From: an uncultured Roseburia sp.
GTDB lineage: Bacteria; Bacillota; Clostridia; Lachnospirales; Lachnospiraceae
NCBI GenBank assembly: GCA_947062675.1
Contig: CAMSQM010000006.1
Coordinates: forward strand, 14,848-78,847
Direction: 5' to 3'
Length of the DNA stretch: 64,000 nucleotides
Shown here one piece after another: positions 5,538-38,646 of the stretch. The notes beneath the pieces were generated by a model. It ran no database searches, was not told the DNA's origin, and saw nothing but the letters and a program-made list of their open reading frames with translations. The first letter of the stretch is position 1, and each line of letters begins with the position of its first letter. The position numbers and the translations under genes were made by a program.

Positions 5538-5560
5538 ATTGGAAATCCCTTTCATATGAT
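5532..5560 (+). promoter_or_regulatory. Possible mother-cell SigE-type promoter for the cotS-like gene
   Basis: TCATGAA-N14-CATATGAT resembles the SigE consensus; lies upstream of the GGAGG-GTG start at 5610. Confidence 0.4.
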
Positions 5561-5609
5561 GAACAGACACGGTAGAGAAACCGTAAATGAATCATATGGA
5601 GGGATTTTT

Positions 5610-6590
5610 GTGTATAATCGACCGGAACAGGTACTGGAGCAATATGAGCTGGAAATAAAATCCGTCTCCAAAGGACGGGAAAGTTACATCTGCGATACCA
5701 GTCAGGGGCAGAAACTGTTAAAGGAGTACAGGGGTTCCGCGCAGCGGGCGGAATTTCTGGCTGATATGCTTGCACATCTTAAGAATGAGGGACTGTCGGT
5801 GGAGACGGTACTCTGTACAAAAGAAGGATGCCCCATCGCAGTCGGCGAAGACGAGGTGAAATATATTGTGCTGGATACCGTTTCCGGGTCGGAGTGCGAT
5901 ACCAGAAACAGGGATCATATGCTTGCGGCAGTCAGAAAGCTTGCGGAACTTCACAATGCGGCGTCAGCTTATGCGGGAACCGCGCCGGAATTTCTGAGAG
6001 CCGATCCGGACGCCCTGCTTTCGCTTTACCGCAAACACAACCGGGAGCTGAATAAAGTAAAGAATTACATACGCGCCAAAAAGAAGAAAAATGCATTTGA
6101 AATGATATTCGCAGGACAGTATGCTGCATTTACGCAGAAGGCGGAGAAGGTGACGGACCTTCTTGCGGCCGAGGAGCCGGATGAGAAACTGTCCGGCTTC
6201 TGTCACGGGGATTACAATCAGCACAATGTCCTGTTTTCAGGGAAGCGCGTGTCGGTGGCGCATTTTGACAGCTTTTCCTTCCAGATGCAGGTCAGCGATC
6301 TCGCCAATTTTATGCGCAAGATGCTTGAAAAAAATAACTGGAACACCGGTCTTGGATCGGATTTTATCGGGACATACGATAAGGTCCGCAGATTATCCGC
6401 GCAGGAGCTGCGGTATCTGTACTACTATCTCGCATATCCGGAGAAATTCTGGAAGATCGCGAATCATTATTATAACGCCCACAAGGCATGGCTGTCCGGA
6501 CGCAATATCGAAAAGCTCGAAAAACTGATTGCGCAGGAACGGGTGCGGGAGGAATTTCTGGTGATGATGGGAAATTTCGTCGGCATCTGA
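5610..6590 (+). CDS. CotS-family spore coat protein (kinase-like fold)
   Basis: LAELH, HGDYNQHN, DLANFMRK, YPEKFWK motifs; GTG 5610 with GGAGG RBS. Confidence 0.85.
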   Translation: MYNRPEQVLEQYELEIKSVSKGRESYICDTSQGQKLLKEYRGSAQRAEFLADMLAHLKNEGLSVETVLCTKEGCPIAVGEDEVKYIVLDTVSGSECDTRNRDHMLAAVRKLAELHNAASAYAGTAPEFLRADPDALLSLYRKHNRELNKVKNYIRAKKKKNAFEMIFAGQYAAFTQKAEKVTDLLAAEEPDEKLSGFCHGDYNQHNVLFSGKRVSVAHFDSFSFQMQVSDLANFMRKMLEKNNWNTGLGSDFIGTYDKVRRLSAQELRYLYYYLAYPEKFWKIANHYYNAHKAWLSGRNIEKLEKLIAQERVREEFLVMMGNFVGI

Positions 6591-6693
6591 GACGCACATA
6601 TAATGCAGGGGCGGCAGCGGTTCGTAAAGTTTGTGATGACCGCAGAGGGAAATTGCATAATTTCTACAGCTTATACACGAAGGAGAAAATGGT

Positions 6694-9600
6694 ATGAACT
6701 ATGATTTTTCGAATCTTGGCGCGGAACAGTTTGAAAATATGGTCAGAAGCCTGAACGAAAAGAAATTCGGGATCGCATGTGAGCAGTATGGACGTGGACC
6801 GGACGGACAGAGAGAATTTGTCTATGAGGGGGAGTTTGCAGACGGCGACGGAACACTTGTCAGCGGACGTGTGATCGGGCAGGTAAAATATAAATACAGC
6901 ACGACGAAAACGGACGATTATGCCTGGCTGACGCGGGAAATCGACCGTGAACTTGCGGGATTTCAGGAGAAAGAAGAGGCCTACCGGCCGGACTATTATC
7001 TGTTTTACACAAATATAGTGCTCACGGCGGTAAAGGATAAGGGGCTGAGGGATAAAGTGTGCGCGTACGTGGAAAGGAAGAATAAGATCATTCCGCATTT
7101 TATTCTGCTTGGTTACGATGAAATCTGCGCGATGCTGGACAACAACCGCGACGTCGCGACAGCTTATGGTCTGGTCCTGCCGGGCGATGTGCTCTCGCAG
7201 CTGCTGCCGGAGAAGGGCGCTGATCCCGCGCAGTGGCTGAAGAAGTATCTGTACAGCGAATTCAGGGAGGAACTGTACACACGCATGGAACAGGCCGGTT
7301 CGGCAACGGAGCAGAAGATTTCCCTGGAAAAGGTGTGTGTGGATCTGAATGTGCTTGACCGGGAGAGCGGAAACACATTTAAGATTGCAGAATATGTATT
7401 TCAGATGGGCGGCGGCAGACTTGGCTATCAGAAAAAAGGTCACCGGGAAGAGCCGGACCGGGAGGAAAATATGGTTCTGATCGGCGGGCCGGGGAAGGGC
7501 AAGAGCACGATCTGCCAGTTTATGGCGCAGGTTTACCGGGCCCGGACTCTTTCGAAAATGGGATGCAGAGAGCGGACGCTGGATGAATTTGCCGGGGGTC
7601 CCGGAGAAAACGGAAAAGACCTGCCGGGCCGTGTCAGACTGCCCTTTGAAGTGGTGCTGCGCGATTACGCTGCGTGGATAAGCCGCAGGGAGGAGATGGA
7701 AGATATCTCCGTACTGCAGTATATGAGGGAGCGGATCAGAAGAATTGCGGGGGAAAATGTCCCGGCGCGCGTGCTGCGCGAGCTGCTGCGGAACATCCCG
7801 TGGATTTTTTTCTTTGACGGCCTGGACGAGGTGCCGGAATCCTCAAACCGGCGGGAAGTGCTGAGAGCGATACACCTGTTTATCGCAATGGAGCTCAGGG
7901 AACTGGCGTGTGACTATATGGTGATCGCGACGACCAGGGCGCAGGGCTATAATCATGAATTTGACGAGGAGCGGTACCGTCATCTGGAGGTCGCAGAGTT
8001 TTCGGAAGAGGACTGCTGCCGGTATGTAGAAAAGCTTTTTGCAGTGATGGAAGAGCAGAGCGTGCGGCGGGAGGAGTATGTCCGCATTATGAAAGAGGCG
8101 CTTTCAGACAGTATCACGGGCAGACTCATGAAGACGCCGCTGCAGGTGACGATTATCGCGATTCTGGTAAAACGCGGCGGAAAACCCCCGCATGACCGCT
8201 ATTCTTTGTTCCGGGAATACTATGAGACGGTTGTAAGCAGAGAGAAACAGAAGGAAATCGTGGAGATGCTGAATGAAAATACGGACTGGCTGGAGGAGCT
8301 TCATTATCTGACCGGTCTGGGTCTGCAGTGCGGGTCGCAGCAGCAGGAAAATGCCGCCGCGGAGATCTCACTGGAGGAGCTGCGCAGCGTGATCCGGACA
8401 TATGTGGAGGAGAACAGGGATGATTTTTATGAGGATAAGGCGGACTGCGAGCGGAAAGCGGAAGAGTTTCTGCGGACAATGACACAGAGAATCTGCTTCC
8501 TGTGCGAAAACCGCAGTGGATTTTACAGCTTTCAGATCCGGTCGGTGCAGGAATTTTTTGCCGGTACCTGTCTGGTAAAAGGGAAAAGCGACGGGGAAAT
8601 CATGGAGAATATACGCCGGATCGCGTACAGCGCTTACTGGAGGAACGTGCTCCTGTTCGCGCTGGGATATATGGAGCGGGAGCGGAAAAGTCTGGAGCCC
8701 TGGGTCGGTGCGCTCTGTGAGCAGATGAACGGAAAGGAAAATTTTCTGCAGGAGGACTACACGCCGGAAAATCTGTGTCTGTTCGGTTCATGGCTGGCTC
8801 TGGATATTCTCACGGAGGACCTTTTCCGTGGAAAGCAGCAGGAGAAGTATATTGTGCTTGCGTCCGGGGCGGCGGCGTTTGCGGGCCATGCGGATTATCA
8901 GAAGTTCAGCCTGCTCACAGGTGTCCGGCGGGACAGGCTGCTGCGCTATCTGCAGCAGAATGCCTGCCGTGATGCGGCGCTTCAGGAGTCGTCGCTGAAC
9001 GTGTACCTGAAGATGCACGAAAATGAGAAAAATAATCTGGAGGAGGAAATCATACAGCTCTGCGGACAGCTTCCGCCGGAGCGCCGGACTGCAGCCTGTG
9101 TCCTGATTCTGGAAAATCTTGTGGGAGACGGGGGCCGTCTCGCGGAATATGCCGGAAGTAAGCTGGAGACGGCGCTGGAACAGGGGGAGGTCCGGCAGCT
9201 TCTTCCCTGCCGCATACTGGGATATCTGCTGTACCGGAAAGGGAGGGAGCGGAGTGCGGAGCTAAAGAAAAATCTGTTCCTGCAGTGTCTCTACTGTGAG
9301 GACTGGAGTGTGAGTGCCGCATGGAAGTGGCAGGCGCTGGGAGTGCAGTGCGACATTGCTCTGCTGCGCAGATATCTGACACCCTGGGGGCGTGGGACAT
9401 TATCACAGAACATGATTCTGAACCTGACAGATTCTTTTGAGATTATGGTAAAAGACCAGGCTCTGCGGCGGGAGACGCTGACAGAGATACAGGCTGAAGT
9501 GCAGAAGCTGAATGCCGGTTTTCTGGCAGAATTCTGCGCGTTTCTTCTGGAACCATCCCTGGAAAAATACCGGGAGCTGTGCAGTCTGGCGGACAGCGGG

Positions 9601-10644
9601 GAGGATTATCTGACTGGAAAGTACAGGGCGCTCGTGAGATATTATGCACCTTATGATCAGGTGGAGACGGAGGAAGCGTTTCAGGCGGCGTGGCGGAGAC
9701 GGGAAGAGGATCTGGGCAGATTTGTCCGGAGAGAGTTCGGGGAACTGTATTTCAGGGAGACGGATGTCAGGTTTTATTCGTCTGTGGGATGCAGATCCGA
9801 CGCCTTCGATGAACTGACGGAACAGGGGATTATTCCTGTGGAAAGGATAGAAGAGCTCAGCGACGGTTTTCTGCAGCAGTTTCTGTTTGCGGCGGGCGTT
9901 CAGCTGGAGTGTGTGCGCCGGATAGCGGATATCAGTGAAAGCACGGCGGAATATTTTGGCAGAATGGTCGCGGAGGCGTCCCGCAGAAATCTGTACGCGT
10001 ACCATATGACAGATATTCTGGCGGTGCTTATGAGTCCTAAGTTCCGTAAGCGCTTCTGGGAGCAGTGTCCGGATTTCGGCCCTGTGGAGAGGATTGCAGA
10101 GGAAGAGCTGCGTGAGCGGAAGTGGAGGCGGCACAGGGTGCCATGTATCAGCGCGGAGGAAGCTGAAACGATTATCGGAAATATCATTCACAAAGTGATA
10201 TATGAGGCGGAGGAGAGCAGCTATCTGGCGCTGATTCCCTGGCTGATTGACGATAAGACTGATCTGAAAAGGTGCATTTCGGGAAATGATTTAAAACAGC
10301 TCTGCCAGACAGACTGCAGGAGTGAGAGCAACCGTCTGACCGTGAAGCTTTTGAGGATGTGTCTGGAAGAAAACAGAGAGCCCAGCCGGGTGGTGGAGGA
10401 GATTCTTCAGACCGGTGTGCCGCGGGCGGTAATTTTTACGGAGCTGGAAAATATGCTCCATTTCTGCGAGGCGGAGAATAAGGAAAAGCTCTGGGTGAGG
10501 ACATATCTGGAACTGACGGACGAGACGTTTGCGGGTAGCGGGGAACTGCGGGGGAGGATTCTCGGCGATATGGCGGAACTGCGCTCCGCCAGCAGCATGC
10601 CGGACTATTTTATGTATGCCTTGTCCACCCGCAGTACCACGTAA
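6694..10644 (+). CDS. Restriction-endonuclease-like domain + NACHT (STAND) NTPase, candidate NLR-like antiphage protein
   Basis: N-terminal FE..L..GRGPDGQRE..GQVK (PD-(D/E)xK/Mrr-like); Walker A GGPGKGKST; Walker B FFFDGLDEV; ATTR, KTPL, SVQEFFAG, WRNVLLFA NACHT motifs; about 650-aa helical C-terminus. Confidence 0.85.
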   Translation: MNYDFSNLGAEQFENMVRSLNEKKFGIACEQYGRGPDGQREFVYEGEFADGDGTLVSGRVIGQVKYKYSTTKTDDYAWLTREIDRELAGFQEKEEAYRPDYYLFYTNIVLTAVKDKGLRDKVCAYVERKNKIIPHFILLGYDEICAMLDNNRDVATAYGLVLPGDVLSQLLPEKGADPAQWLKKYLYSEFREELYTRMEQAGSATEQKISLEKVCVDLNVLDRESGNTFKIAEYVFQMGGGRLGYQKKGHREEPDREENMVLIGGPGKGKSTICQFMAQVYRARTLSKMGCRERTLDEFAGGPGENGKDLPGRVRLPFEVVLRDYAAWISRREEMEDISVLQYMRERIRRIAGENVPARVLRELLRNIPWIFFFDGLDEVPESSNRREVLRAIHLFIAMELRELACDYMVIATTRAQGYNHEFDEERYRHLEVAEFSEEDCCRYVEKLFAVMEEQSVRREEYVRIMKEALSDSITGRLMKTPLQVTIIAILVKRGGKPPHDRYSLFREYYETVVSREKQKEIVEMLNENTDWLEELHYLTGLGLQCGSQQQENAAAEISLEELRSVIRTYVEENRDDFYEDKADCERKAEEFLRTMTQRICFLCENRSGFYSFQIRSVQEFFAGTCLVKGKSDGEIMENIRRIAYSAYWRNVLLFALGYMERERKSLEPWVGALCEQMNGKENFLQEDYTPENLCLFGSWLALDILTEDLFRGKQQEKYIVLASGAAAFAGHADYQKFSLLTGVRRDRLLRYLQQNACRDAALQESSLNVYLKMHENEKNNLEEEIIQLCGQLPPERRTAACVLILENLVGDGGRLAEYAGSKLETALEQGEVRQLLPCRILGYLLYRKGRERSAELKKNLFLQCLYCEDWSVSAAWKWQALGVQCDIALLRRYLTPWGRGTLSQNMILNLTDSFEIMVKDQALRRETLTEIQAEVQKLNAGFLAEFCAFLLEPSLEKYRELCSLADSGEDYLTGKYRALVRYYAPYDQVETEEAFQAAWRRREEDLGRFVRREFGELYFRETDVRFYSSVGCRSDAFDELTEQGIIPVERIEELSDGFLQQFLFAAGVQLECVRRIADISESTAEYFGRMVAEASRRNLYAYHMTDILAVLMSPKFRKRFWEQCPDFGPVERIAEEELRERKWRRHRVPCISAEEAETIIGNIIHKVIYEAEESSYLALIPWLIDDKTDLKRCISGNDLKQLCQTDCRSESNRLTVKLLRMCLEENREPSRVVEEILQTGVPRAVIFTELENMLHFCEAENKEKLWVRTYLELTDETFAGSGELRGRILGDMAELRSASSMPDYFMYALSTRSTT

Positions 10645-11771
10645 TAGCAGTTCCCAAGACGGGTCCTTACTTTTTCGCGAATGATCCGCTCCAGTTCCTC
10701 GTCGCTGATATAGAACCGGTAGGGCACCATCACATCAAAGATCAGGCTGGTGTGGGTCGGTCCCGTGACGGCGCGGAAATCGTGAATTGTCATGACCTCG
10801 TCGATCCCGCGGATAATGGAAATGACTGTGCTGCGCAGCTCACGGATATGTTCGTCTGAGGTCACAATGGGATCCATGTGGATGGTCGCGTCGCATCCGA
10901 GCTGTGCGCGCAGTTCATTTTCCACATTGTCGATGGCGTCATGAATTTCAAGAATATTTCCCTCTGAGGGAACTTCAGCGTGGAGAGAGATCATCTGTCG
11001 CCCCGGACCGTAGTCATGCACAATCAGGTCGTGAATGCCGCAGATTTCGTCGTGTGCCATCACGATCCGGTTGATCTGACTGACAAATTCGGCATCCGGC
11101 GGCTGTCCGAGCAGTGGATTTAAGGTCTCCCGCGCCGCGCTGAACCCCGCGTACAGGATAAAAAGTCCCACCAGCGCACCGCAGTACCCGTCAATATGCA
11201 GACCGGTGTAGTGGCCGGTCAGCGTGGAAATCAGAACCACGGTCGTCGCACAGACGTCACTCAGGCTGTCCGTCGCTGTGGCGCGCATGGCCGCGGAGTC
11301 CAGTCTTTTTCCAATACTGTTGTTGTAAAAACACATGTATAGTTTTACAAGGATGGAAATCACGAGAATCACCACCGCGAGACCGGAAAATTCTGTTTCC
11401 GCCGGATGGATGATTTTTGCGACGGAGTCTTTGAGCAGCTCGTAAGCCATCAGAAGGATGGCTGCCGATACGGCAAGCCCGGAGATGTATTCAATTCTGC
11501 CATGACCAAACGGGTGCTCCGGGTCCGGTCTGGCGCCGGCCAGCTTAAAACCCACCAGCGTCACAAAGGAGGAGCCGGCGTCTGAGAGATTGTTGAACGC
11601 ATCGGCGGTGATTGCGATCGAATGGCTTATGGTGCCCGCCAGAAACTTTCCTGCAAACAGCAGGATATTGAGAAAAATCCCGACAGTTCCACACAGGATC
11701 CCGTACTGCTGTCTTACCTTCCGCCTGTCGTCCGTTTCACGGATAAAAAATTTTGCGAGAAGCGCTATCAT
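10605..11771 (-). CDS. Cation diffusion facilitator (CDF/FieF-like) metal efflux transporter
   Basis: ADAFNNLSD, HPFGHGRIEY, DSLSD, IHDLIVHDYG motifs; multiple TM segments. Confidence 0.93.
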   Translation of the reverse strand: MIALLAKFFIRETDDRRKVRQQYGILCGTVGIFLNILLFAGKFLAGTISHSIAITADAFNNLSDAGSSFVTLVGFKLAGARPDPEHPFGHGRIEYISGLAVSAAILLMAYELLKDSVAKIIHPAETEFSGLAVVILVISILVKLYMCFYNNSIGKRLDSAAMRATATDSLSDVCATTVVLISTLTGHYTGLHIDGYCGALVGLFILYAGFSAARETLNPLLGQPPDAEFVSQINRIVMAHDEICGIHDLIVHDYGPGRQMISLHAEVPSEGNILEIHDAIDNVENELRAQLGCDATIHMDPIVTSDEHIRELRSTVISIIRGIDEVMTIHDFRAVTGPTHTSLIFDVMVPYRFYISDEELERIIREKVRTRLGNCYYVVLRVDKAYIK

Positions 11772-23169: not shown

Positions 23170-24309
23170 TTATTTTGTGCGTTTTTTTTCCTGATACATC
23201 CGTTTATCAGCCAGCGCCACGGCGTCCCTTGTACTTTTCATGCTGTCAGCATTATATTTTACACAGCCGGCGCTGATGGTGATTTCCCATGGCTTTCCGC
23301 CGCCCCAGCGGATTCCGGCAACCGACTCCTGAAGACGTCTGATGGTATCCATGGCTTCTTCAGGCGTATTGCTTTTGAGAATTATGACAAATTCGTCTCC
23401 GCCGTATCTTGCGAGAAATGCCTGTTCTGCCCCGAACACGATTTTGATCCGATCGGAAACTTCCCGAAGCACTTCATCTCCGGTCACATGACCGTATGCA
23501 TCGTTGATGCTTTTGAATTTATTGATATCCATCAGGATAAAGTACCAGTTCTCCTTATCCTCCAGGCGTTCATCCATAATCTGCAGGTACTGGTCCAGGC
23601 GCCTCCGGTTGTTTAAGCCTGTCAGGCTGTCCCTTGTGACCTGCTCACGCTGGACATTGGTGTAGATCAGCAGCAGGGACGCCGCCGTAAAGGGCCAGAT
23701 AAGGTCTGTCCCGAAGAAAGCGAGCTGCAGAATACTGCCGAGGACCGGCAGCAGAATAAAGGCGGCAAGCATCTGGAACTCTTTTTTCTTTTCAGGAAGA
23801 TATTCCAGACGGATCTGACGGTGGGCCAGCGCGGAAGCGGCGGTCAGATAGCCGACTGGAATCAGCACCTGAAGCACAAAGTATGGCCCGCGCACGTAGT
23901 GGTTGTGAGAGTCCATGTAAAACAGCAGCCGGTGCCAGGGATTCGATGCGAGGACCGCAAGCAGCACAAGCAGTGGAACAGACCAGACAGCCGCTTTTCT
24001 GCCGGTCTGCCCGACTCCGTTGACAACCATATCATACACGTACAGATACCACAGAAATGCGGCAAAACATACGGAGCCGGAATACAGGGTATTTGTGAAC
24101 CACAGGAGAGCGGAGGCATATGGCTTTATACTGCCGTCCAGAACCCAGGTGCACATGTTGATCACGATAATGCCGGCAAGCAGCACGATAATAAAACGCA
24201 GCACGCGGCTCCGCCAGGTATAGGTGAAAATTTTTGGCGTATTGAGCCGCATAATAATAAGTACTATGATCGGTATAATATTGATCTGCACATATATCGC
24301 CGCACTCAC
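23170..24309 (-). CDS. Membrane diguanylate cyclase (about 7 TM + GGDEF)
   Basis: RDSLTGLNNRR, DINKFKSINDAYGHVTGD, ARYGGDEF; GTG 24309 overlaps the upstream stop (GTGA) with GGAGG RBS. Confidence 0.9.
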   Translation of the reverse strand: MSAAIYVQINIIPIIVLIIMRLNTPKIFTYTWRSRVLRFIIVLLAGIIVINMCTWVLDGSIKPYASALLWFTNTLYSGSVCFAAFLWYLYVYDMVVNGVGQTGRKAAVWSVPLLVLLAVLASNPWHRLLFYMDSHNHYVRGPYFVLQVLIPVGYLTAASALAHRQIRLEYLPEKKKEFQMLAAFILLPVLGSILQLAFFGTDLIWPFTAASLLLIYTNVQREQVTRDSLTGLNNRRRLDQYLQIMDERLEDKENWYFILMDINKFKSINDAYGHVTGDEVLREVSDRIKIVFGAEQAFLARYGGDEFVIILKSNTPEEAMDTIRRLQESVAGIRWGGGKPWEITISAGCVKYNADSMKSTRDAVALADKRMYQEKKRTK

Positions 24310-25517
24310 ACAGAATCCTCCTTTTTTGCGCATATCGCCGGTTCCGGCTGCCTGTGCAGCCGCGCCGCCCGTGTGCTTTCTTTTTTGTCTGTTTTCTGCC
24401 GGTACATCCGCTCGTCTGCTTTTGCGATCAGACCTGCGGTGGTCTGGTCTGCTATCTCGCTCCACATGGCATAGCCGATACTCAGGGAAAGGCTGTAAGG
24501 TTTGCCTGTTCTCTGCCGGAAGAGTTCAGCCTCACTGTGAATACGCTGCATCATGTGCCGGGCGTCTTCCGGCGTCTCCCATTCGCCAATTACCGAGAAC
24601 TCATCCCCGCCGTACCGGGCCAGGAAGACAGGCTCCCCTGAGGCTGCGCGCCGCAGAATCCCGGCAGTCGCCCAGAGAGCCTCGTCGCCGACAGAATGAC
24701 CGTGTCTGTCGTTGATCAGTTTGAAATCATCCACATCAATCATCAGGATTCCCCAGTCGGTCCTGTCCTGTTCCGTTTTTTTGCGCAGATAGCGGTCAAA
24801 CTCCCTGCGGTTGTTAAGACCGGTCAGTCCGTCCGTTGTGATCTGCTGGTTCTGCGTTTTAATGTAGAGAAACAGGATCCCGACGGACATACACGGAGCG
24901 GTAATGCACCAGTCGGCCCGGATGGTGTCCGCGAGGATGCCGGCCAGCGGAAACAGGGCGGACTGCATCAGAAACCGGTATTCCTGCCGCAATGCGCTGC
25001 GGGAGGCCCGTTTTAAGGCAGCGTATGCCAGAAACGAGCTGGCCAGAAAAACGATGCCGGAGAAAAGTTCCGGGATAAAAAAGAGACATTCTCTCCGGTA
25101 TATCCGGTCGTCCGTGATGGAAAAAATCAGGTGAGTCCATGGCGTCAGGGCGGTAAATGCCACGTATCCGGCAAATACATACTGCAGGATGCGGCGTGCT
25201 TTGTTTATTCTGTCCGGCGGCTCCTTTCCGTAGATGCGATAGCGCAGGTAGAGGAACCAGTGGCATGGAACCATGGCAGAAAAAACTGCGTTTAAAATAT
25301 GAACCAGCCAGAAGAGGAACACCGGCGTGCGGTCCTGCCATTCGTCCAGGAACCCCGCAGCCACGTCCAGGGCGATAAGTCCGCCGGTCATAAGGATCAG
25401 CTGCTGGAACAGTCGTGTCTCTGTTTTCCTTGTTCCCTTTTTCTGGTTGTTCAGATACAGGATCGCGAGCATGCATACTGGAAATAAATTAACGCTTAAA
25501 TGCGTCACGATATCCAT
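24306..25517 (-). CDS. Membrane diguanylate cyclase (about 7 TM + GGDEF), paralog of the neighbour
   Basis: TDGLTGLNNRR, DVDDFKLINDRHGHSVGD, ARYGGDEF. Confidence 0.92.
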   Translation of the reverse strand: MDIVTHLSVNLFPVCMLAILYLNNQKKGTRKTETRLFQQLILMTGGLIALDVAAGFLDEWQDRTPVFLFWLVHILNAVFSAMVPCHWFLYLRYRIYGKEPPDRINKARRILQYVFAGYVAFTALTPWTHLIFSITDDRIYRRECLFFIPELFSGIVFLASSFLAYAALKRASRSALRQEYRFLMQSALFPLAGILADTIRADWCITAPCMSVGILFLYIKTQNQQITTDGLTGLNNRREFDRYLRKKTEQDRTDWGILMIDVDDFKLINDRHGHSVGDEALWATAGILRRAASGEPVFLARYGGDEFSVIGEWETPEDARHMMQRIHSEAELFRQRTGKPYSLSLSIGYAMWSEIADQTTAGLIAKADERMYRQKTDKKESTRAARLHRQPEPAICAKKEDSV

Positions 25518-25530
25518 AATACTCCTCCGC

Positions 25531-27525
25531 CTACTGATATTTCCTGCGGAACTGTACCGGAGTCATTTCGTAGGCTTTCCGGAACAGGCGGTTAAAATGT
25601 TCAACATTTTCGTATCCCACATAGGCCGCGATCGCCTCCACGGTCTGGTTTGTCTCCTTGAGCATCTTGCGCGCACGTTTCATGCGCGCGGCCTTGACAG
25701 CATCCTGAAAAGTCATGCCCGACTTCTCGCGGATATAGCGTGAGAGATACGGTTTGGAGAGGCCGAAGTTCTCGGCGAGGAGGTCCAGTGTCACGTCCGC
25801 ATAATGGCTCTGGATATAGTTCATAATATCGACGATGCGCTCCTCACGTCCCTCTGTGATATTCTTATCTTTCGTGAGCTTGTTGGCCGCGGAGACAAGT
25901 GCCGCAACCGAGCTTGTGATGATATCCGCGTCAATGCCCACACCCCAGTAATCTGTTCCCTGGCAGGTGATCTGTACGAACGCGGCAGCCCTGGAGGAAG
26001 AGCCCCTGGAGATCGCATGTTCCTCATAGGCGGAGAGCTCATAGCTGACGCCGAAAAACATCTTGATCGCATTGCTGACGGCGTCAAGGCGGCCGTTACC
26101 TGCCGTCTCGACAGTCCTCTGTTCCCCGTTCTGCGCGATGGTAACCGTGGCCGTGATACCGTTCTTCTGCTCGAAGTGGCATTCCGTTATGGCGAAGATA
26201 TCCTTGCGGTTGATGTAATGTTCCTCAAAAATACGGTAAATGGCCTGCGGGGACAGCTCCTGGTGCATGTGGTCGGAAGTTCCCTTGACGAGATATCCGA
26301 CTTCCTCTTTCATCTGATCGGGCAGCGCAATGCCAAAGTTCTGTTTTAAAATGAAGGCCACGCCGCCTTTGCCCGACTGGCTGTTGATGCGGATGACGTC
26401 GGATTCGTATTCACGTCCCACATCCCGGGGGTCAATTGGCAGATAGGGCACATCCCAGCGCTCCCCGCTATTGCCCGCGTCCCGCCATGCCATGCCCTTG
26501 GAGATTGCGTCCTGGTGGGAACCGGAAAAAGCGGTGAATACCAGGTCTCCGGCGTACGGCGTGCGCTCATAGACGCGCATACCGGTAAACTGTTCATACT
26601 TTTCGCGGATCGGGCTGATGTGCGAGAAGTCCAGTCCCGGATCGACGCCGTGGCAGAACAGGTTCATCGCGAGAGTGACGATATCGACATTTCCGGTCCT
26701 CTCCCCGTTGCCGAACAGCGTTCCCTCGACCCGGTCGGCCCCGGCCAGGACGCCGAACTCCGCATCGCTTATGCCGCAGCCACGGTCATTGTGCGGGTGT
26801 ACGCTTAATATCACGTGTTCGCGATACTTTAAGTGCCTGTGAATGTATTCAATCTGGCAGGCGAAGACGTGCGGCATGGCGATCTGTACCGTTGTCGGGA
26901 TATTGATAATCGCCCTGTGCGTATCATCCGGCTTCCACACATCCAGCACCGCGTTGCAGACCTCCACGGCGTAATCCACCTCGGTTCCCGGAAAGCTCTC
27001 CGGGCTGTACTCGAAGGTGAAGCTGCCGTCCGTCTCATCCGCAAGTGTTTTTAACAGGGCGGCGCCATCCACGGCGAGCTGTTTCACCTCTTCGCGGCTC
27101 TTCTTAAACACCTGTTCCCTCTGCGCGACGGAAGTAGAATTATAGAGATGAATGACGGCGTGCGGCGCGCCCTTTACCGCCTCAAAGGTCTTGCGGATAA
27201 TGTGCTCCCTGGCCTGGGTGAGCACCTGCACCGTCACATCATCGGGGATCATATTCCGCTCGATCAGCGCGCGCATAAAATTGTACTCCGTCTCGGAGGC
27301 GGCGGGAAAACCGACTTCGATTTCCTTAAAACCGATATCCACAAGCATCCGGAAGAATTCAAGCTTTTCCTCAAGGCTCATCGGTTCGATCAGGGCCTGG
27401 TTGCCGTCTCTTAAGTCCACACTGCACCAGACGGGCGGCCTTTCGATGCTGTCTTTTTTTACCCAGTCATATGTCACCTCCGGCGGCATAAAGTAGGACT
27501 TTTTATATTTTTCTGCGATGTTCAT
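25531..27525 (-). CDS. leuA: 2-isopropylmalate synthase with C-terminal AraC-type HTH
   Basis: SVDLRDGNQAL, HPHNDRG, GNGERTGN, NSQSGKGG; last ~105 aa are an AraC double HTH (LSKPYLSRYIR..VGYENVEHFNRLFRKAYEMTPVQFR) in frame. Confidence 0.93.
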   Translation of the reverse strand: MNIAEKYKKSYFMPPEVTYDWVKKDSIERPPVWCSVDLRDGNQALIEPMSLEEKLEFFRMLVDIGFKEIEVGFPAASETEYNFMRALIERNMIPDDVTVQVLTQAREHIIRKTFEAVKGAPHAVIHLYNSTSVAQREQVFKKSREEVKQLAVDGAALLKTLADETDGSFTFEYSPESFPGTEVDYAVEVCNAVLDVWKPDDTHRAIINIPTTVQIAMPHVFACQIEYIHRHLKYREHVILSVHPHNDRGCGISDAEFGVLAGADRVEGTLFGNGERTGNVDIVTLAMNLFCHGVDPGLDFSHISPIREKYEQFTGMRVYERTPYAGDLVFTAFSGSHQDAISKGMAWRDAGNSGERWDVPYLPIDPRDVGREYESDVIRINSQSGKGGVAFILKQNFGIALPDQMKEEVGYLVKGTSDHMHQELSPQAIYRIFEEHYINRKDIFAITECHFEQKNGITATVTIAQNGEQRTVETAGNGRLDAVSNAIKMFFGVSYELSAYEEHAISRGSSSRAAAFVQITCQGTDYWGVGIDADIITSSVAALVSAANKLTKDKNITEGREERIVDIMNYIQSHYADVTLDLLAENFGLSKPYLSRYIREKSGMTFQDAVKAARMKRARKMLKETNQTVEAIAAYVGYENVEHFNRLFRKAYEMTPVQFRRKYQ

Positions 27526-35201: not shown

Positions 35202-36662
35202 TTGAAGAAGATCAGGATTAACAGGAAAAACGTAATTCCCGTCCTCCTTACGATCCTCTGCATTCTGTCTGCGGGGGGATGCGGGGACAGCAGGGACGGC
35301 AGGCTGGTCACGGGGAAATATTACTATCCTGAAAAGGATACACAGGAAGCGGAAGATTCTGCGAAAAACGGGCAGAAGGAGGAGAGCGGGCAGGAAACGC
35401 CGGAGAGGGAAGAGAGCGCGCCGCTTTCCGGGGCAGGGGACGATATCGCCGGCGCAGAGCTTTTTCTGATCATGGGAAATGATATGCAGAGGCAGAGTCT
35501 GCTTTTAAAGCAGCTGGCATCCGGAAAACAGTACAAATATCAGTATTCGCTGGCAACGCGCTTTCTCGATAAATATGGGAACCGCATGCCGGTGTCCGGT
35601 TTTGACTGCGGAAGAATCATTGAGATCGGGGAGAGAGACAACAATGGAAAAGTGATGCAGGTGCAGATTTCAGACGACGTCTGGGAGTATCCGGACGTCA
35701 GACGCTATTCCGTGGACGGGCAGCACGGCGCGTTTGTCATCGCGGACACGAAATATCTGTTCGATGATTCGCTGTATGTCAGTTCCGACGGCAGGGTGCA
35801 GGAGCTCTCGGATCTGACGGAGCTGGATACTTTGCGGGTGATCGGCAGGGGGCGGAAGCTTTTGTCTGTGACCGTGACGACCGGCCACGGAAAGCTCTCG
35901 CTCACGAACACGGAGTTGTTTGACGGCAGCCTGATTCAGATCGGAAACCGTATTTTTCAGGAAATTACAGGACCGATGACGCTGGAGCTTGCGGAGGGGA
36001 CGCATCTTGTCACGGTGGCCAACGACGGCTATGGAGGCAGCACTGAGGTCACGGTGGAGCGTGGAAAGGAGACGGTACTGGATCTGAATACCTTAAAAGG
36101 GGAGGGGCCGAAGTTTGGAAATGTGTTGTTTGCCGTCGACGTGGAGGGAGCTGTGCTGCAGATTGACGGGAAAGTCGTCGACTACAGTGAGGTGATCGCG
36201 CTGAAATACGGGGTGCACACGATTACGGTGACGGCTGATTCCTATGAGACTTACACGAAAAAGCTGTATGTCAACTCTGAGGAGGCCACGATCGTCATAG
36301 GACTGACAGGACAAAATCCCGCTCAGGGGAGCGCAGGAGAACAGGGCGGGAGTTCTGAGGAGAGTTCAGAAAAAAAAGATACGGAAAACAATACTTCCGG
36401 GGATACGGCCGGGAGCGGCGCGGCAGGCGGCCAGGCGGGCAGTCTCGCCGGAAGCCAGGCGGGCAGTCTCGCCGGGAGCGGCGGTAACGGAACGGGAACC
36501 GGCCAGGGGACGAATAACGGCCAGAATCTTGATAACATTATGAGCGAGGCGGAACTCAATACCATTGTGGATGAGCTTCTGGACAATAAGGATGATGAGA
36601 ATATGTCGTCGTCTGATTTCCTCACAACGCTTGGCGATCTGGTGGACAAAATTGTGGATTAA
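35202..36662 (+). CDS. PEGA-domain lipoprotein
   Basis: TTG start with AAGGAG RBS, lipobox LSAGGC, PEGA-like GTHLVTVANDGY and GVHTITVTADSY, Gly/Ser-rich tail. Confidence 0.75.
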   Translation: MKKIRINRKNVIPVLLTILCILSAGGCGDSRDGRLVTGKYYYPEKDTQEAEDSAKNGQKEESGQETPEREESAPLSGAGDDIAGAELFLIMGNDMQRQSLLLKQLASGKQYKYQYSLATRFLDKYGNRMPVSGFDCGRIIEIGERDNNGKVMQVQISDDVWEYPDVRRYSVDGQHGAFVIADTKYLFDDSLYVSSDGRVQELSDLTELDTLRVIGRGRKLLSVTVTTGHGKLSLTNTELFDGSLIQIGNRIFQEITGPMTLELAEGTHLVTVANDGYGGSTEVTVERGKETVLDLNTLKGEGPKFGNVLFAVDVEGAVLQIDGKVVDYSEVIALKYGVHTITVTADSYETYTKKLYVNSEEATIVIGLTGQNPAQGSAGEQGGSSEESSEKKDTENNTSGDTAGSGAAGGQAGSLAGSQAGSLAGSGGNGTGTGQGTNNGQNLDNIMSEAELNTIVDELLDNKDDENMSSSDFLTTLGDLVDKIVD

Positions 36663-36912: not shown

Positions 36913-38646
36913 ATGGGTTATAGGGAAACGTATGAGGCATGGCTGGACAATCCCTACTTTGACGAGGCGACAAGGGAGGAGCTTAAGGGCATCGCCGGCG
37001 ATGAGAAGGAGATCGAGGAGCGCTTTTACATGGATCTGGAGTTTGGAACGGCAGGTCTGCGCGGAGTGATCGGGGCGGGCACGAACCGCATGAATATCTA
37101 TACTGTGCGCAAGGCGACACAGGGGCTGGCGAATTATATTCTCAAAGTGGGGGCACAGGCAAAGGGAGTTGCGATCGCTTATGATTCCAGAAGAATGTCG
37201 CCGGAGTTTGCGGATGAGGCTGCGCTCTGTCTTGCGGCAAACGGGATTAAGGCGTATGTATTTGAGTCGCTGCGGCCGACGCCGGAGCTCTCTTATGCAG
37301 TCCGCAGGCTGGGCTGTACCGCAGGAATCAATATCACGGCAAGTCACAATCCGCCGGAATACAATGGCTATAAGGTGTACTGGGAGGACGGTGCGCAGAT
37401 CACACCGCCGCATGATACAGGAATCATGGATGAAGTGCGCGCAGTGACAGATTATGCGACTGTTAAAACGATGTCCCTGGAGGACGCGAAGGCAGCCGGT
37501 CTGTATCAGGTGATTGGCGCGGATATCGATGATCCGTATATTGAAGAGCTGAAAAAGCTGGTGCTTCACCAGGACTGCATCGACAAAGTGGGTGCGGATA
37601 TGAAGATCGTCTATTCCCCGCTTCACGGCACTGGAAATATCCCGGTGCGCCGTGTGTTAAAAGAGCTCGGATTCCCGAATGTTTATGTCGTGCCGGAGCA
37701 GGAGCTTCCGGACGGAGAGTTCCCGACGGTCAGTTATCCCAATCCGGAGGCGGCGGAGGCGTTTGAGCTTGGCCTTGCCCTTGGCAGAAAGGTTGACGCA
37801 GACCTGATTCTGGCCACTGATCCGGACGCGGACCGTCTGGGCGTGTATGTAAAGGATTCCAAAACAGGAGAATACCACAGCCTGACCGGAAATATGTCCG
37901 GTTGTCTGATCGGGGATTATGTGATCGGACAGCGCAGGGAGCTGCACGGACTGCCTGAGGACGGCGCATTTATCCGCTCGATTGTTTCGACGAATATGGC
38001 GGATGCGATTGCGGCGCACTACGGGATCGCGCTGGTCGAGGTGCTGACCGGATTCAAGTTTATCGGGCAGAAGATCCTGGAGTTTGAGAATACCGGTAAG
38101 GGAACATATCTCTTCGGCATGGAGGAGAGTTACGGGTGTCTCACGGGAACTTATGCGAGGGACAAGGATGCCATTGTCGCTTCCATGGCGCTGTGCGAGG
38201 CAGCTGCTTACTATAAGACGAAGGGTATGACCCTGTGGGACGCAATGCTTGCAATGTATGAGAAATACGGCTACTACAAGGATGATGTAACGTCCATTAC
38301 CTTAAAGGGCATTGAGGGTCTGGCAAAGATTCAGGAGATCATGGATACCCTGCGCGCGGATGCACCAAAACAGATCGGCAGCTATCAGGTGACCGCTGTG
38401 CGCGACTATAAAAAGGGCACGATCACGAATATGGCCGATGGTTCGGAGCGTCCGACAGGACTCCCGTCTTCAAATGTGCTCTATTATGAGATGACGGACG
38501 GGGCATGGGTGTGCGTGAGGCCGTCCGGCACAGAGCCCAAGGTAAAATTCTATCTCGGTGTAAAGGGAAGCTCCATGGAGAATGCGGATGAAAAGTCGGC
38601 GGCACTCTCCAAAGAAGTACTTGCAATGATTAATCAGATGCTGTAA
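36913..38646 (+). CDS. pgm: Phosphoglucomutase/phosphomannomutase
   Basis: FGTAGLRG, ITASHNP, DPDADR, GMEESYG, RPSGTEPK. Confidence 0.93.
   Translation: MGYRETYEAWLDNPYFDEATREELKGIAGDEKEIEERFYMDLEFGTAGLRGVIGAGTNRMNIYTVRKATQGLANYILKVGAQAKGVAIAYDSRRMSPEFADEAALCLAANGIKAYVFESLRPTPELSYAVRRLGCTAGINITASHNPPEYNGYKVYWEDGAQITPPHDTGIMDEVRAVTDYATVKTMSLEDAKAAGLYQVIGADIDDPYIEELKKLVLHQDCIDKVGADMKIVYSPLHGTGNIPVRRVLKELGFPNVYVVPEQELPDGEFPTVSYPNPEAAEAFELGLALGRKVDADLILATDPDADRLGVYVKDSKTGEYHSLTGNMSGCLIGDYVIGQRRELHGLPEDGAFIRSIVSTNMADAIAAHYGIALVEVLTGFKFIGQKILEFENTGKGTYLFGMEESYGCLTGTYARDKDAIVASMALCEAAAYYKTKGMTLWDAMLAMYEKYGYYKDDVTSITLKGIEGLAKIQEIMDTLRADAPKQIGSYQVTAVRDYKKGTITNMADGSERPTGLPSSNVLYYEMTDGAWVCVRPSGTEPKVKFYLGVKGSSMENADEKSAALSKEVLAMINQML

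Follow-up and report, generated by a model that had tools for sequence, protein, structure and literature searches.

The question raised by this locus is what is encoded by a long gene with nuclease and NACHT motifs that stands in a housekeeping region of an uncultured Roseburia sp. The stretch analyzed here, referred to throughout as the window, comprises 64,000 nucleotides of contig CAMSQM010000006.1 (assembly GCA_947062675.1, positions 14,848 to 78,847 of the forward strand), and its positions 6694-10644 (+) hold an intact, single open reading frame (ORF) of 1316 aa with an ATG start. With a probability of roughly three in four, the product of this gene is an antiphage sensor, STAND/NLR-like and made of a single chain, of the kind known from the bacterial NACHT (bNACHT) and Avs proteins. 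The 3.0-Mb assembly holds one copy of the gene, and the consensus N-terminus of its homologues (MRYDFSKM...) agrees with the ATG at 6694 as the start. The gene and the parts of its product are as follows.

6694-10644, + strand: whole gene, encoding a nuclease-NACHT-solenoid STAND protein (P0001), 1316 codons plus stop.
6681-6685, + strand: AGGAG ribosome-binding site, 8 nt before the ATG at 6694, read from the sequence.
6694-7173, + strand: predicted PD-(D/E)xK (Mrr/REase-like) nuclease effector, residues 1-160, from an AlphaFold2 model, a fold match and conserved residues.
7174-7443, + strand: helical linker between effector and NTPase, residues 161-250, from the AlphaFold2 model and comparison of relatives.
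7444-8853, + strand: NACHT nucleotide-binding oligomerisation module, residues 251-720, from the Pfam NACHT match and invariant motifs.
7483-7509, + strand: Walker A (P-loop) motif GGPGKGKST with K270, residues 264-272, from sequence and conservation.
7807-7830, + strand: Walker B motif FFFDGLDE, in the NACHT form hhhhD-G-h-D-E, residues 372-379, from sequence and conservation.
8854-10641, + strand: all-helical solenoid, the presumed sensor, residues 721-1316, from the AlphaFold2 model, column entropy and phmmer.

The N-terminal region carries three nuclease motifs, F13-E14, GPDGQRE at residues 35-41 and GQVK at residues 62-65, with E14, D37/E41 and Q63-x-K65 as candidate catalytic residues. 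D37 is kept in 42/42 aligned relatives and E14, E41, Q63 and K65 in 41/42, and the same residue pattern is present in an E. coli relative that is merely 26% identical (GADGGRD...LQSKF). An AlphaFold2 model of the first 250 residues, built on the 42-sequence alignment and of medium confidence (mean predicted local distance difference test score (pLDDT) 74.5), gave helices (H) and strands (E) in the order H10-25, E30-32, E41-49, E55-65, H75-92, E101-106, which is that of the PD-(D/E)xK core (helix, three strands, helix, strand). In this model E14 falls within helix 1, D37/E41 mark the start of strand 2 and Q63-V-K65 close strand 3; the loop with D37 is poorly modelled, so the catalytic acid of strand 2 could be either D37 or E41. 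The best PDB fold match was to the nuclease end of the Avs4 chain 8dgf (probability 0.99, E 3e-3, template modelling (TM) score 0.36-0.41), with SPARDA chains ranking far below it among the weak matches. No Pfam nuclease family, for example Mrr_cat, matched at E<=1, and an NCBIfam search of the protein returned nothing useful. PADLOC matches were confined to residues 1-158 and were to REase-type models associated with prokaryotic Argonaute (pAgo) and to PDC-S73 (E 1e-7 to 4e-5); across 30 family members, 29/30 match Aga_TIR-PNTD1-PNTD2 and 26/30 match Aga_REase-TIR-PNTD1-PNTD2. Residues 1-160 are, on the evidence of the model, predicted to form a PD-(D/E)xK nuclease fold.

The central module is matched by Pfam NACHT (PF05729) at 28.4 bits against a cut-off of 26.7, and at the family level 29/30 homologues match NACHT (E<=1e-3) and 20/30 match NPHP3_N, with relatives P0079 and P0065 covering model positions 3-164, almost the whole model. 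Further NACHT motifs follow the Walker A and Walker B sequences (TTR 413-415, KTPLQ 480-484, H537 and QEFFA 619-623), and K270, D375, D378, E379, R415, P482 and H537 are invariant in 30/30 family members. Of these, R415 (TTR), P482 (TPL) and H537 are candidates for the sensor-1 arginine, the GxP-like residue and the winged-helix histidine, placed by motif order alone. The profile score above cut-off and the forms of the Walker A and B motifs assign the predicted NTPase to the NACHT clade of STAND NTPases, a class reportedly set out by Koonin and Aravind in 2000.

For the C-terminal region, an AlphaFold2 model of residues 690-1316 (pLDDT 86, predicted TM score 0.76) comprises 39 helices together with some short strands. 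Foldseek searches of the solenoid in the PDB and BFVD returned generic HEAT/ARM/TPR solenoids only, at TM <0.3, and the fold therefore gives no hint of a ligand. Column entropy over 30 full-length members was 0.87 in the nuclease, 1.05 in the NACHT module and 0.94 in residues 661-720, rising to 2.26 in residues 721-1316, and identity to the protein described here falls from ~0.6 to 0.28 at the C-terminal region. When the sensor alone was used as query, a phmmer run without filters recovered 30 proteins from 1.84 billion representatives, every one a family member or fragment. These comparisons support a C-terminus that is family-specific and hypervariable and that behaves like a sensor.

The anatomy outlined in a preliminary description of this DNA, made from the letters and ORF translations, stands with one adjustment. 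The ORF and the full motif list that it gave are all present and are conserved in relatives, and are not chance strings. Its nuclease call for residues 1-160 agrees with the fold order, the Avs4 match and the residue conservation, and its NACHT call with the Pfam score above cut-off, the matches of 29/30 family members and the invariant motifs; the effector-NACHT-sensor layout that it proposed holds by the nuclease model, the Pfam NACHT match and the hypervariable helical C-terminus. That C-terminus, put at ~650 aa and helical, is helical in a confident model with no specific relative by Foldseek, but is closer to 600 aa and by conservation starts at about residue 720.

The relatives show how this protein is assembled. 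A word-index search found 82 homologues, the best full-length relative being 54% identical, and more than 25 proteins of similar length share 33-44% identity with the protein described here until residues 708-724 and then have unrelated C-termini. Two relatives, P0079 and P0082, are homologous only from residue 182 on, indicating other N-terminal effectors there. P0082, a metagenomic protein of 1638 aa, has AAA_21/ABC-type ATPase matches at its C-terminus in place of the solenoid and is an example of the chassis with both ends exchanged. When one genome per species was counted, the nuclease-NACHT half was found in at least 409 loci, with homology stopping near residue 710-724; these loci span Bacillota, Bacteroidota, Actinomycetota, Chloroflexota, Cyanobacteria, Proteobacteria, Planctomycetota and Verrucomicrobiota. 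The same half is carried by plasmids of Rhodococcus, Streptomyces, Priestia and Klebsiella as well. In full length, with this sensor, the protein is patchy and lineage-specific, being found in only ~16 Lachnospiraceae genomes, labelled Acetatifactor, Eubacterium, Roseburia or unclassified. The E. coli H2 relative (WP_096949132.1; NZ_CP028733.1, L050:7001-10993) has 1330 aa, is annotated as 'NACHT domain-containing protein', shares 26% identity over residues 2-664 (E 4e-64) with a different C-terminus, and is of a type present in 3/5426 complete E. coli genomes. PADLOC applied to the E. coli, Klebsiella and Priestia relatives matched nothing past the REase end, and tblastn found no homologue in phage records. 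The jump in entropy, the swapped C-termini and the narrow spread of the sensor indicate a conserved effector-switch chassis joined to a rare, fast-evolving and exchangeable C-terminal module.

Homologues of the gene lie in defence islands. In Lachnospiraceae bacterium M18-1 the homologue is located in a BREX cluster, between BrxA/B/C on one side and GmrSD, an AAA_15/DUF3696 ATPase and PglZ on the other. Elsewhere one homologue lies directly 3' of AbiH, one adjoins DpnII and Mrr_cat genes and one adjoins Uma2 and Macro genes; the E. coli H2 homologue is inside a degraded P2-like prophage, between the phage portal and replication-endonuclease genes, and that of Klebsiella variicola is on an IncF plasmid near Lit and IS110. 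In the flanks of 16 family loci, 115 ORFs match 147 PADLOC families (E<=1e-10), including PglX (6.5e-144), Type IIG restriction-modification, DrmMI, NsnB, AbiLi, Old/GajA and AriA, whilst 46 other ORFs of this window, taken as a control, match 6 families. The control matches are attributed to housekeeping look-alikes, for example a NifS-type gene resembling DndA/SspA and Mfd resembling Cas3/DpdF. The survey is semi-quantitative, since it tallies families instead of proteins, with many of the models redundant. No gene recurs as a conserved partner beside the homologues, which points to a one-gene system. These neighbourhoods support an abortive-infection sensor of the Avs/bNACHT type. In different Lachnospiraceae genomes, two family members (L026/L069 and L055) were also found directly downstream of a Gate-domain (SpmA/SpmB-like) gene pair, which suggests a recurrent insertion spot.

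In the window itself, the gene is preceded by genes for prolyl-tRNA synthetase (ProRS), the CCA-adding enzyme and an APH/CotS-YutH-like kinase (5556-6590), and is followed by convergent genes for a cation diffusion facilitator (CDF) transporter (10605-11771, -), signal peptidase, NifU and NifS. The two genes at its 3' end share a short segment:

10605-10644, no strand assigned: 40-bp overlap in which the NACHT gene and the convergent CDF transporter gene share their 3' ends, from the ORF coordinates.

At the C-terminal end of the NACHT protein, ~16 residues lack conservation and are modelled with low confidence, and the part of the protein over this overlap looks like a read-on tail made when the gene was placed there. 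The G+C fraction is 0.51-0.55 over the gene versus 0.49-0.60 in the flanks. In the 103 bp that separate the kinase gene from the NACHT ORF, a simple consensus scan picked up neither a terminator-like nor a promoter-like site, and no target-site duplications or terminal repeats flank the gene, short chance repeats only being present.

The history of the locus was read from its relatives. No homologue was found in 60 related genomes, comprising 36 congeneric species and 24 further relatives, and 34/36 congeners keep the CotS-like kinase. In 10/10 congeners examined, most with ProRS upstream, the CCA and CotS genes are followed directly by lipoprotein and phosphoglucomutase-like genes, which here lie at window positions 35202-36662 and 36913-38646; their displacement shows that a block of 28.6 kb (window 6591-35201) splits CotS from its usual neighbour. 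The NACHT gene stands at the left edge of this block, the rest of which holds ordinary chromosomal genes (CDF, signal peptidase, NifU/S, GGDEF proteins, MCP, Mfd, Pth and others). Relatives carry the NifS-NifU-SPase-CDF cluster elsewhere, the gene after CDF varies, and no integrase or repeats were found at the block junction. The block is a lineage-specific rearrangement, and the NACHT gene is a recent, lineage-specific acquisition at its junction, not an old resident.

Within the species the gene looks fixed in position, as every conspecific contig found has the gene flanked by CotS and CDF, with ~98.7% nucleotide identity. Intact 1316-aa alleles are present in several conspecific assemblies, and one metagenome-assembled genome (MAG) carries a 17-bp deletion near codons 174-180 (near window 7213-7236). 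Two further allelic changes are placed as follows.

8341-8343, + strand: conspecific nonsense allele Q550* (codon 550, CAG to TAG), seen in several samples and at least 13 contigs (L030, L031).
7725-7728, + strand: GAGG deletion giving a frameshift at codon 344, one conspecific MAG.

Apparent splits in two further alleles, L032 and part of L033, were rejected, being runs of N at one position.

The preliminary description had placed the gene between cotS and a CDF gene, with no clear terminator after the cotS-like gene and no mobile-element marks, and these observations are confirmed by the gene order, by the consensus scan and by the lack of flanking repeats and of an integrase at the junction. 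Its reading of an old, domesticated defence gene is wrong, because the gene was acquired at the level of the species and null alleles occur within that species: it is absent from the 36 congeners and 24 relatives, synteny is broken at the locus, and the nearest full-length relatives are only 54% identical. Conservation at the cotS-CDF locus is likewise not universal, 0/60 relatives carrying the gene and all conspecific contigs found doing so.

Several results weigh against an antiphage sensor of the bNACHT/Avs kind. The Pfam NACHT match is marginal, 1.7 bits over the cut-off, and a family profile run against PDB sequences found P-loop kinases only and neither Avs3 nor Avs4. In the nuclease model the D37 loop has a pLDDT <50, the TM score to Avs4 is merely 0.36-0.41 and overall confidence is medium. 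In PADLOC, REase-containing models match the N-terminal ~150 residues, the sole part of the protein with any match, and no bNACHT or Avs model matches. In BLAST comparisons with bNACHT25 and bNACHT27 (first ~400 aa of each), similarity was limited to the P-loop. No defence neighbours of the gene were found in this genome, and Q550* is sampled more often than any single intact allele.

The last of these results bears on whether the gene is still in use. With a nonsense allele as the commonest recorded in the species, the gene may be dispensable or decaying, and one could regard it as a relic that was acquired as a defence gene and is no longer selected, the intact copy perhaps being silent or non-functional. 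The frameshift of 4 bp and the deletion of 17 bp, each in one MAG, add to the Q550* contigs in favouring this, as do the upstream spacer of 103 bp with neither a promoter-like site of its own nor a terminator and the isolation of the gene from other defence genes. However, the indels confined to one MAG each may reflect misassembly, the copy in the window has its full length and every catalytic and NTPase residue, and the species has several other intact alleles of 1316 aa. The intact alleles differ by 24 synonymous versus 22 non-synonymous codons, too few to compare sensor with chassis and with fewer non-synonymous changes than neutral decay predicts. Decay is accordingly considered improbable, and still more so is a STAND NTPase outside immunity, for example a regulator, or a housekeeping factor of DNA-repair or restriction-like type, tied to the sporulation-type kinase. 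Such a role would suit the housekeeping surroundings and the position after the CotS/YutH-like kinase gene with no terminator between, and many STAND clades lack a defence association according to a 2026 survey; yet all 36 congeners lack the gene while keeping the ProRS-CCA-CotS genes (the CotS-like kinase in 34/36), no partner gene is conserved across homologue loci, and a nuclease effector, a hypervariable C-terminus and homologues in defence islands all argue against it, leaving it very improbable.

A protein of the same class could instead act as a guard, its solenoid monitoring a host factor or chaperone that is perturbed by infection. The validated bNACHT25 and bNACHT32, which have the same three-part layout, need host DnaJ, Avs7 takes in host EF-Tu, and the fold search of BFVD turned up no viral structure resembling the sensor. 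The strong diversification of the sensor and its wholesale exchange among close chassis relatives nevertheless fit an arms race with phage better than surveillance of a conserved host protein, and the protein has no sequence similarity to bNACHT25. A guard is on balance unlikely, though less so than decay. The preferred reading remains a single-chain antiphage sensor of the bNACHT/Avs kind, and a more specific form of it can be put forward tentatively, at a little under even odds: the solenoid may represent a new Lachnospiraceae-only STAND sensor family, directed at a conserved protein from phages of gut Clostridia, or at a host factor, outside the coverage of characterised Avs and bNACHT proteins, with the REase-NACHT part serving as a common platform for swapped sensors.

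By analogy with Avs3, Avs4, Avs7 and bNACHT25, the resting protein would be a nucleotide-bound, autoinhibited monomer. The solenoid would bind a cue of infection, in the likeliest case a conserved Lachnospiraceae phage protein and alternatively a host factor perturbed by infection, and this binding may free the NACHT module for ATP binding and oligomerisation. The oligomer would gather the N-terminal PD-(D/E)xK nuclease domains into an active assembly, which would cut DNA indiscriminately, such that the phage is stopped and the cell is lost by abortive infection. The nature of the ligand, oligomerisation, DNA cleavage and protection from phage are for this family all projected from the characterised systems.

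Defence systems of gut Lachnospiraceae have had almost no experimental study, and the gene offers a clean single-gene candidate with mutational targets at K270, D375/D378 and D37/E41/Q63/K65, together with natural intact and Q550* alleles in one species as a ready-made comparison. A ligand, if found, would add one entry to the map of phage proteins sensed by bacterial STANDs; it would leave the concept as it is, since sensors of the nuclease-NACHT and nuclease-STAND types are established already.

Two other features of the window were noted. A single ORF at 25531-27525 (-) encodes, by Pfam, a complete 2-isopropylmalate synthase (HMGL-like, IPMS_D2, LeuA_dimer) with a C-terminal AraC-type helix-turn-helix domain (HTH_18). 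At 23170-25517 (-) are two neighbouring GGDEF diguanylate-cyclase ORFs, one with an N-terminal seven-transmembrane domain, which as listed overlap by ~160 bp; this overlap is probably due to the choice of start codon.

Among known systems, the closest in fold, by the N-terminal model, is EcAvs4 (PDB 8dgf), an antiviral STAND protein with an N-terminal Mrr-like nuclease. EcAvs4 is said, from the 2022 work of Gao et al., to be activated by binding the phage portal protein. The protein described here is like EcAvs4 in the logic of effector, STAND module and large helical sensor, and EcAvs4 is the best structural match of its N-terminal model; it is unlike EcAvs4 in having no sequence match (PDB-sequence profile and PADLOC Avs models), an NTPase that is of NACHT type by Pfam, and an unrelated sensor. 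The general Avs layout is thus present, with an effector, a STAND NTPase, a helical sensor of at least 400 aa (~600 aa here) and homologues in a defence context, and no homology to a named Avs family (Avs1-21) was found through PADLOC Avs models, a set lacking Avs6-21, or PDB Avs3/Avs4 sequences. In Avs3, Avs4 and Avs7, ligand binding drives nuclease-mediated tetramerisation, and Avs7 also incorporates EF-Tu of the host.

A partial likeness is seen with the pAgo-associated REase/DREN effectors (Aga_REase-TIR-PNTD, Aga_TIR-PNTD) and PDC-S73, with which the N-terminal domain alone is shared; unlike the pAgo-associated systems, the protein described here is without an Argonaute, APAZ or TIR part. 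The layout is that of bNACHT25 and bNACHT32 of E. coli (clade 6), which are antiphage and need their nuclease (D48A) (Kibby et al., bioRxiv 10.1101/2022.07.19.500537; PMC12169576): one gene encodes an N-terminal PD-(D/E)xK DNase, a NACHT-type STAND NTPase and a C-terminal helical domain. bNACHT25 has ~750 aa and a short NCH1 domain, against a solenoid of ~600 aa here, and the two are provisionally assigned to different clades. Compared with the bNACHT proteins as a group, the tripartite layout is shared and a sequence relationship to a validated member or a database model is absent. A further counterpart may lie in Table S1 of Kibby et al., which contains, in clades 2 and 3, REase+NACHT and Mrr_cat+NACHT (+HEAT) proteins that are uncharacterised and whose domain borders are nearly the same as those found here (Calothrix, REase 5-156 and NACHT 218-694; a planctomycete, REase 18-111 and NACHT 235-720). 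Chassis relatives identified in this work include the same taxa as those clades, namely cyanobacteria, actinobacteria and planctomycetes; none of the family accessions looked up is listed in Table S1 of the preprint, in which bNACHT25 is listed.

The 2026 survey put the number of defence-associated STAND clades at 198 and that of sensor clusters at 684, the majority being helical repeats; with so many already counted, one more such sensor is expected and not surprising. The nuclease-NACHT architecture is likewise not new, REase+NACHT proteins having been catalogued and bNACHT25/32 validated. As judged from the alignments, the conserved chassis with its exchangeable C-terminal module follows the pattern described for bNACHT and Avs sensors.

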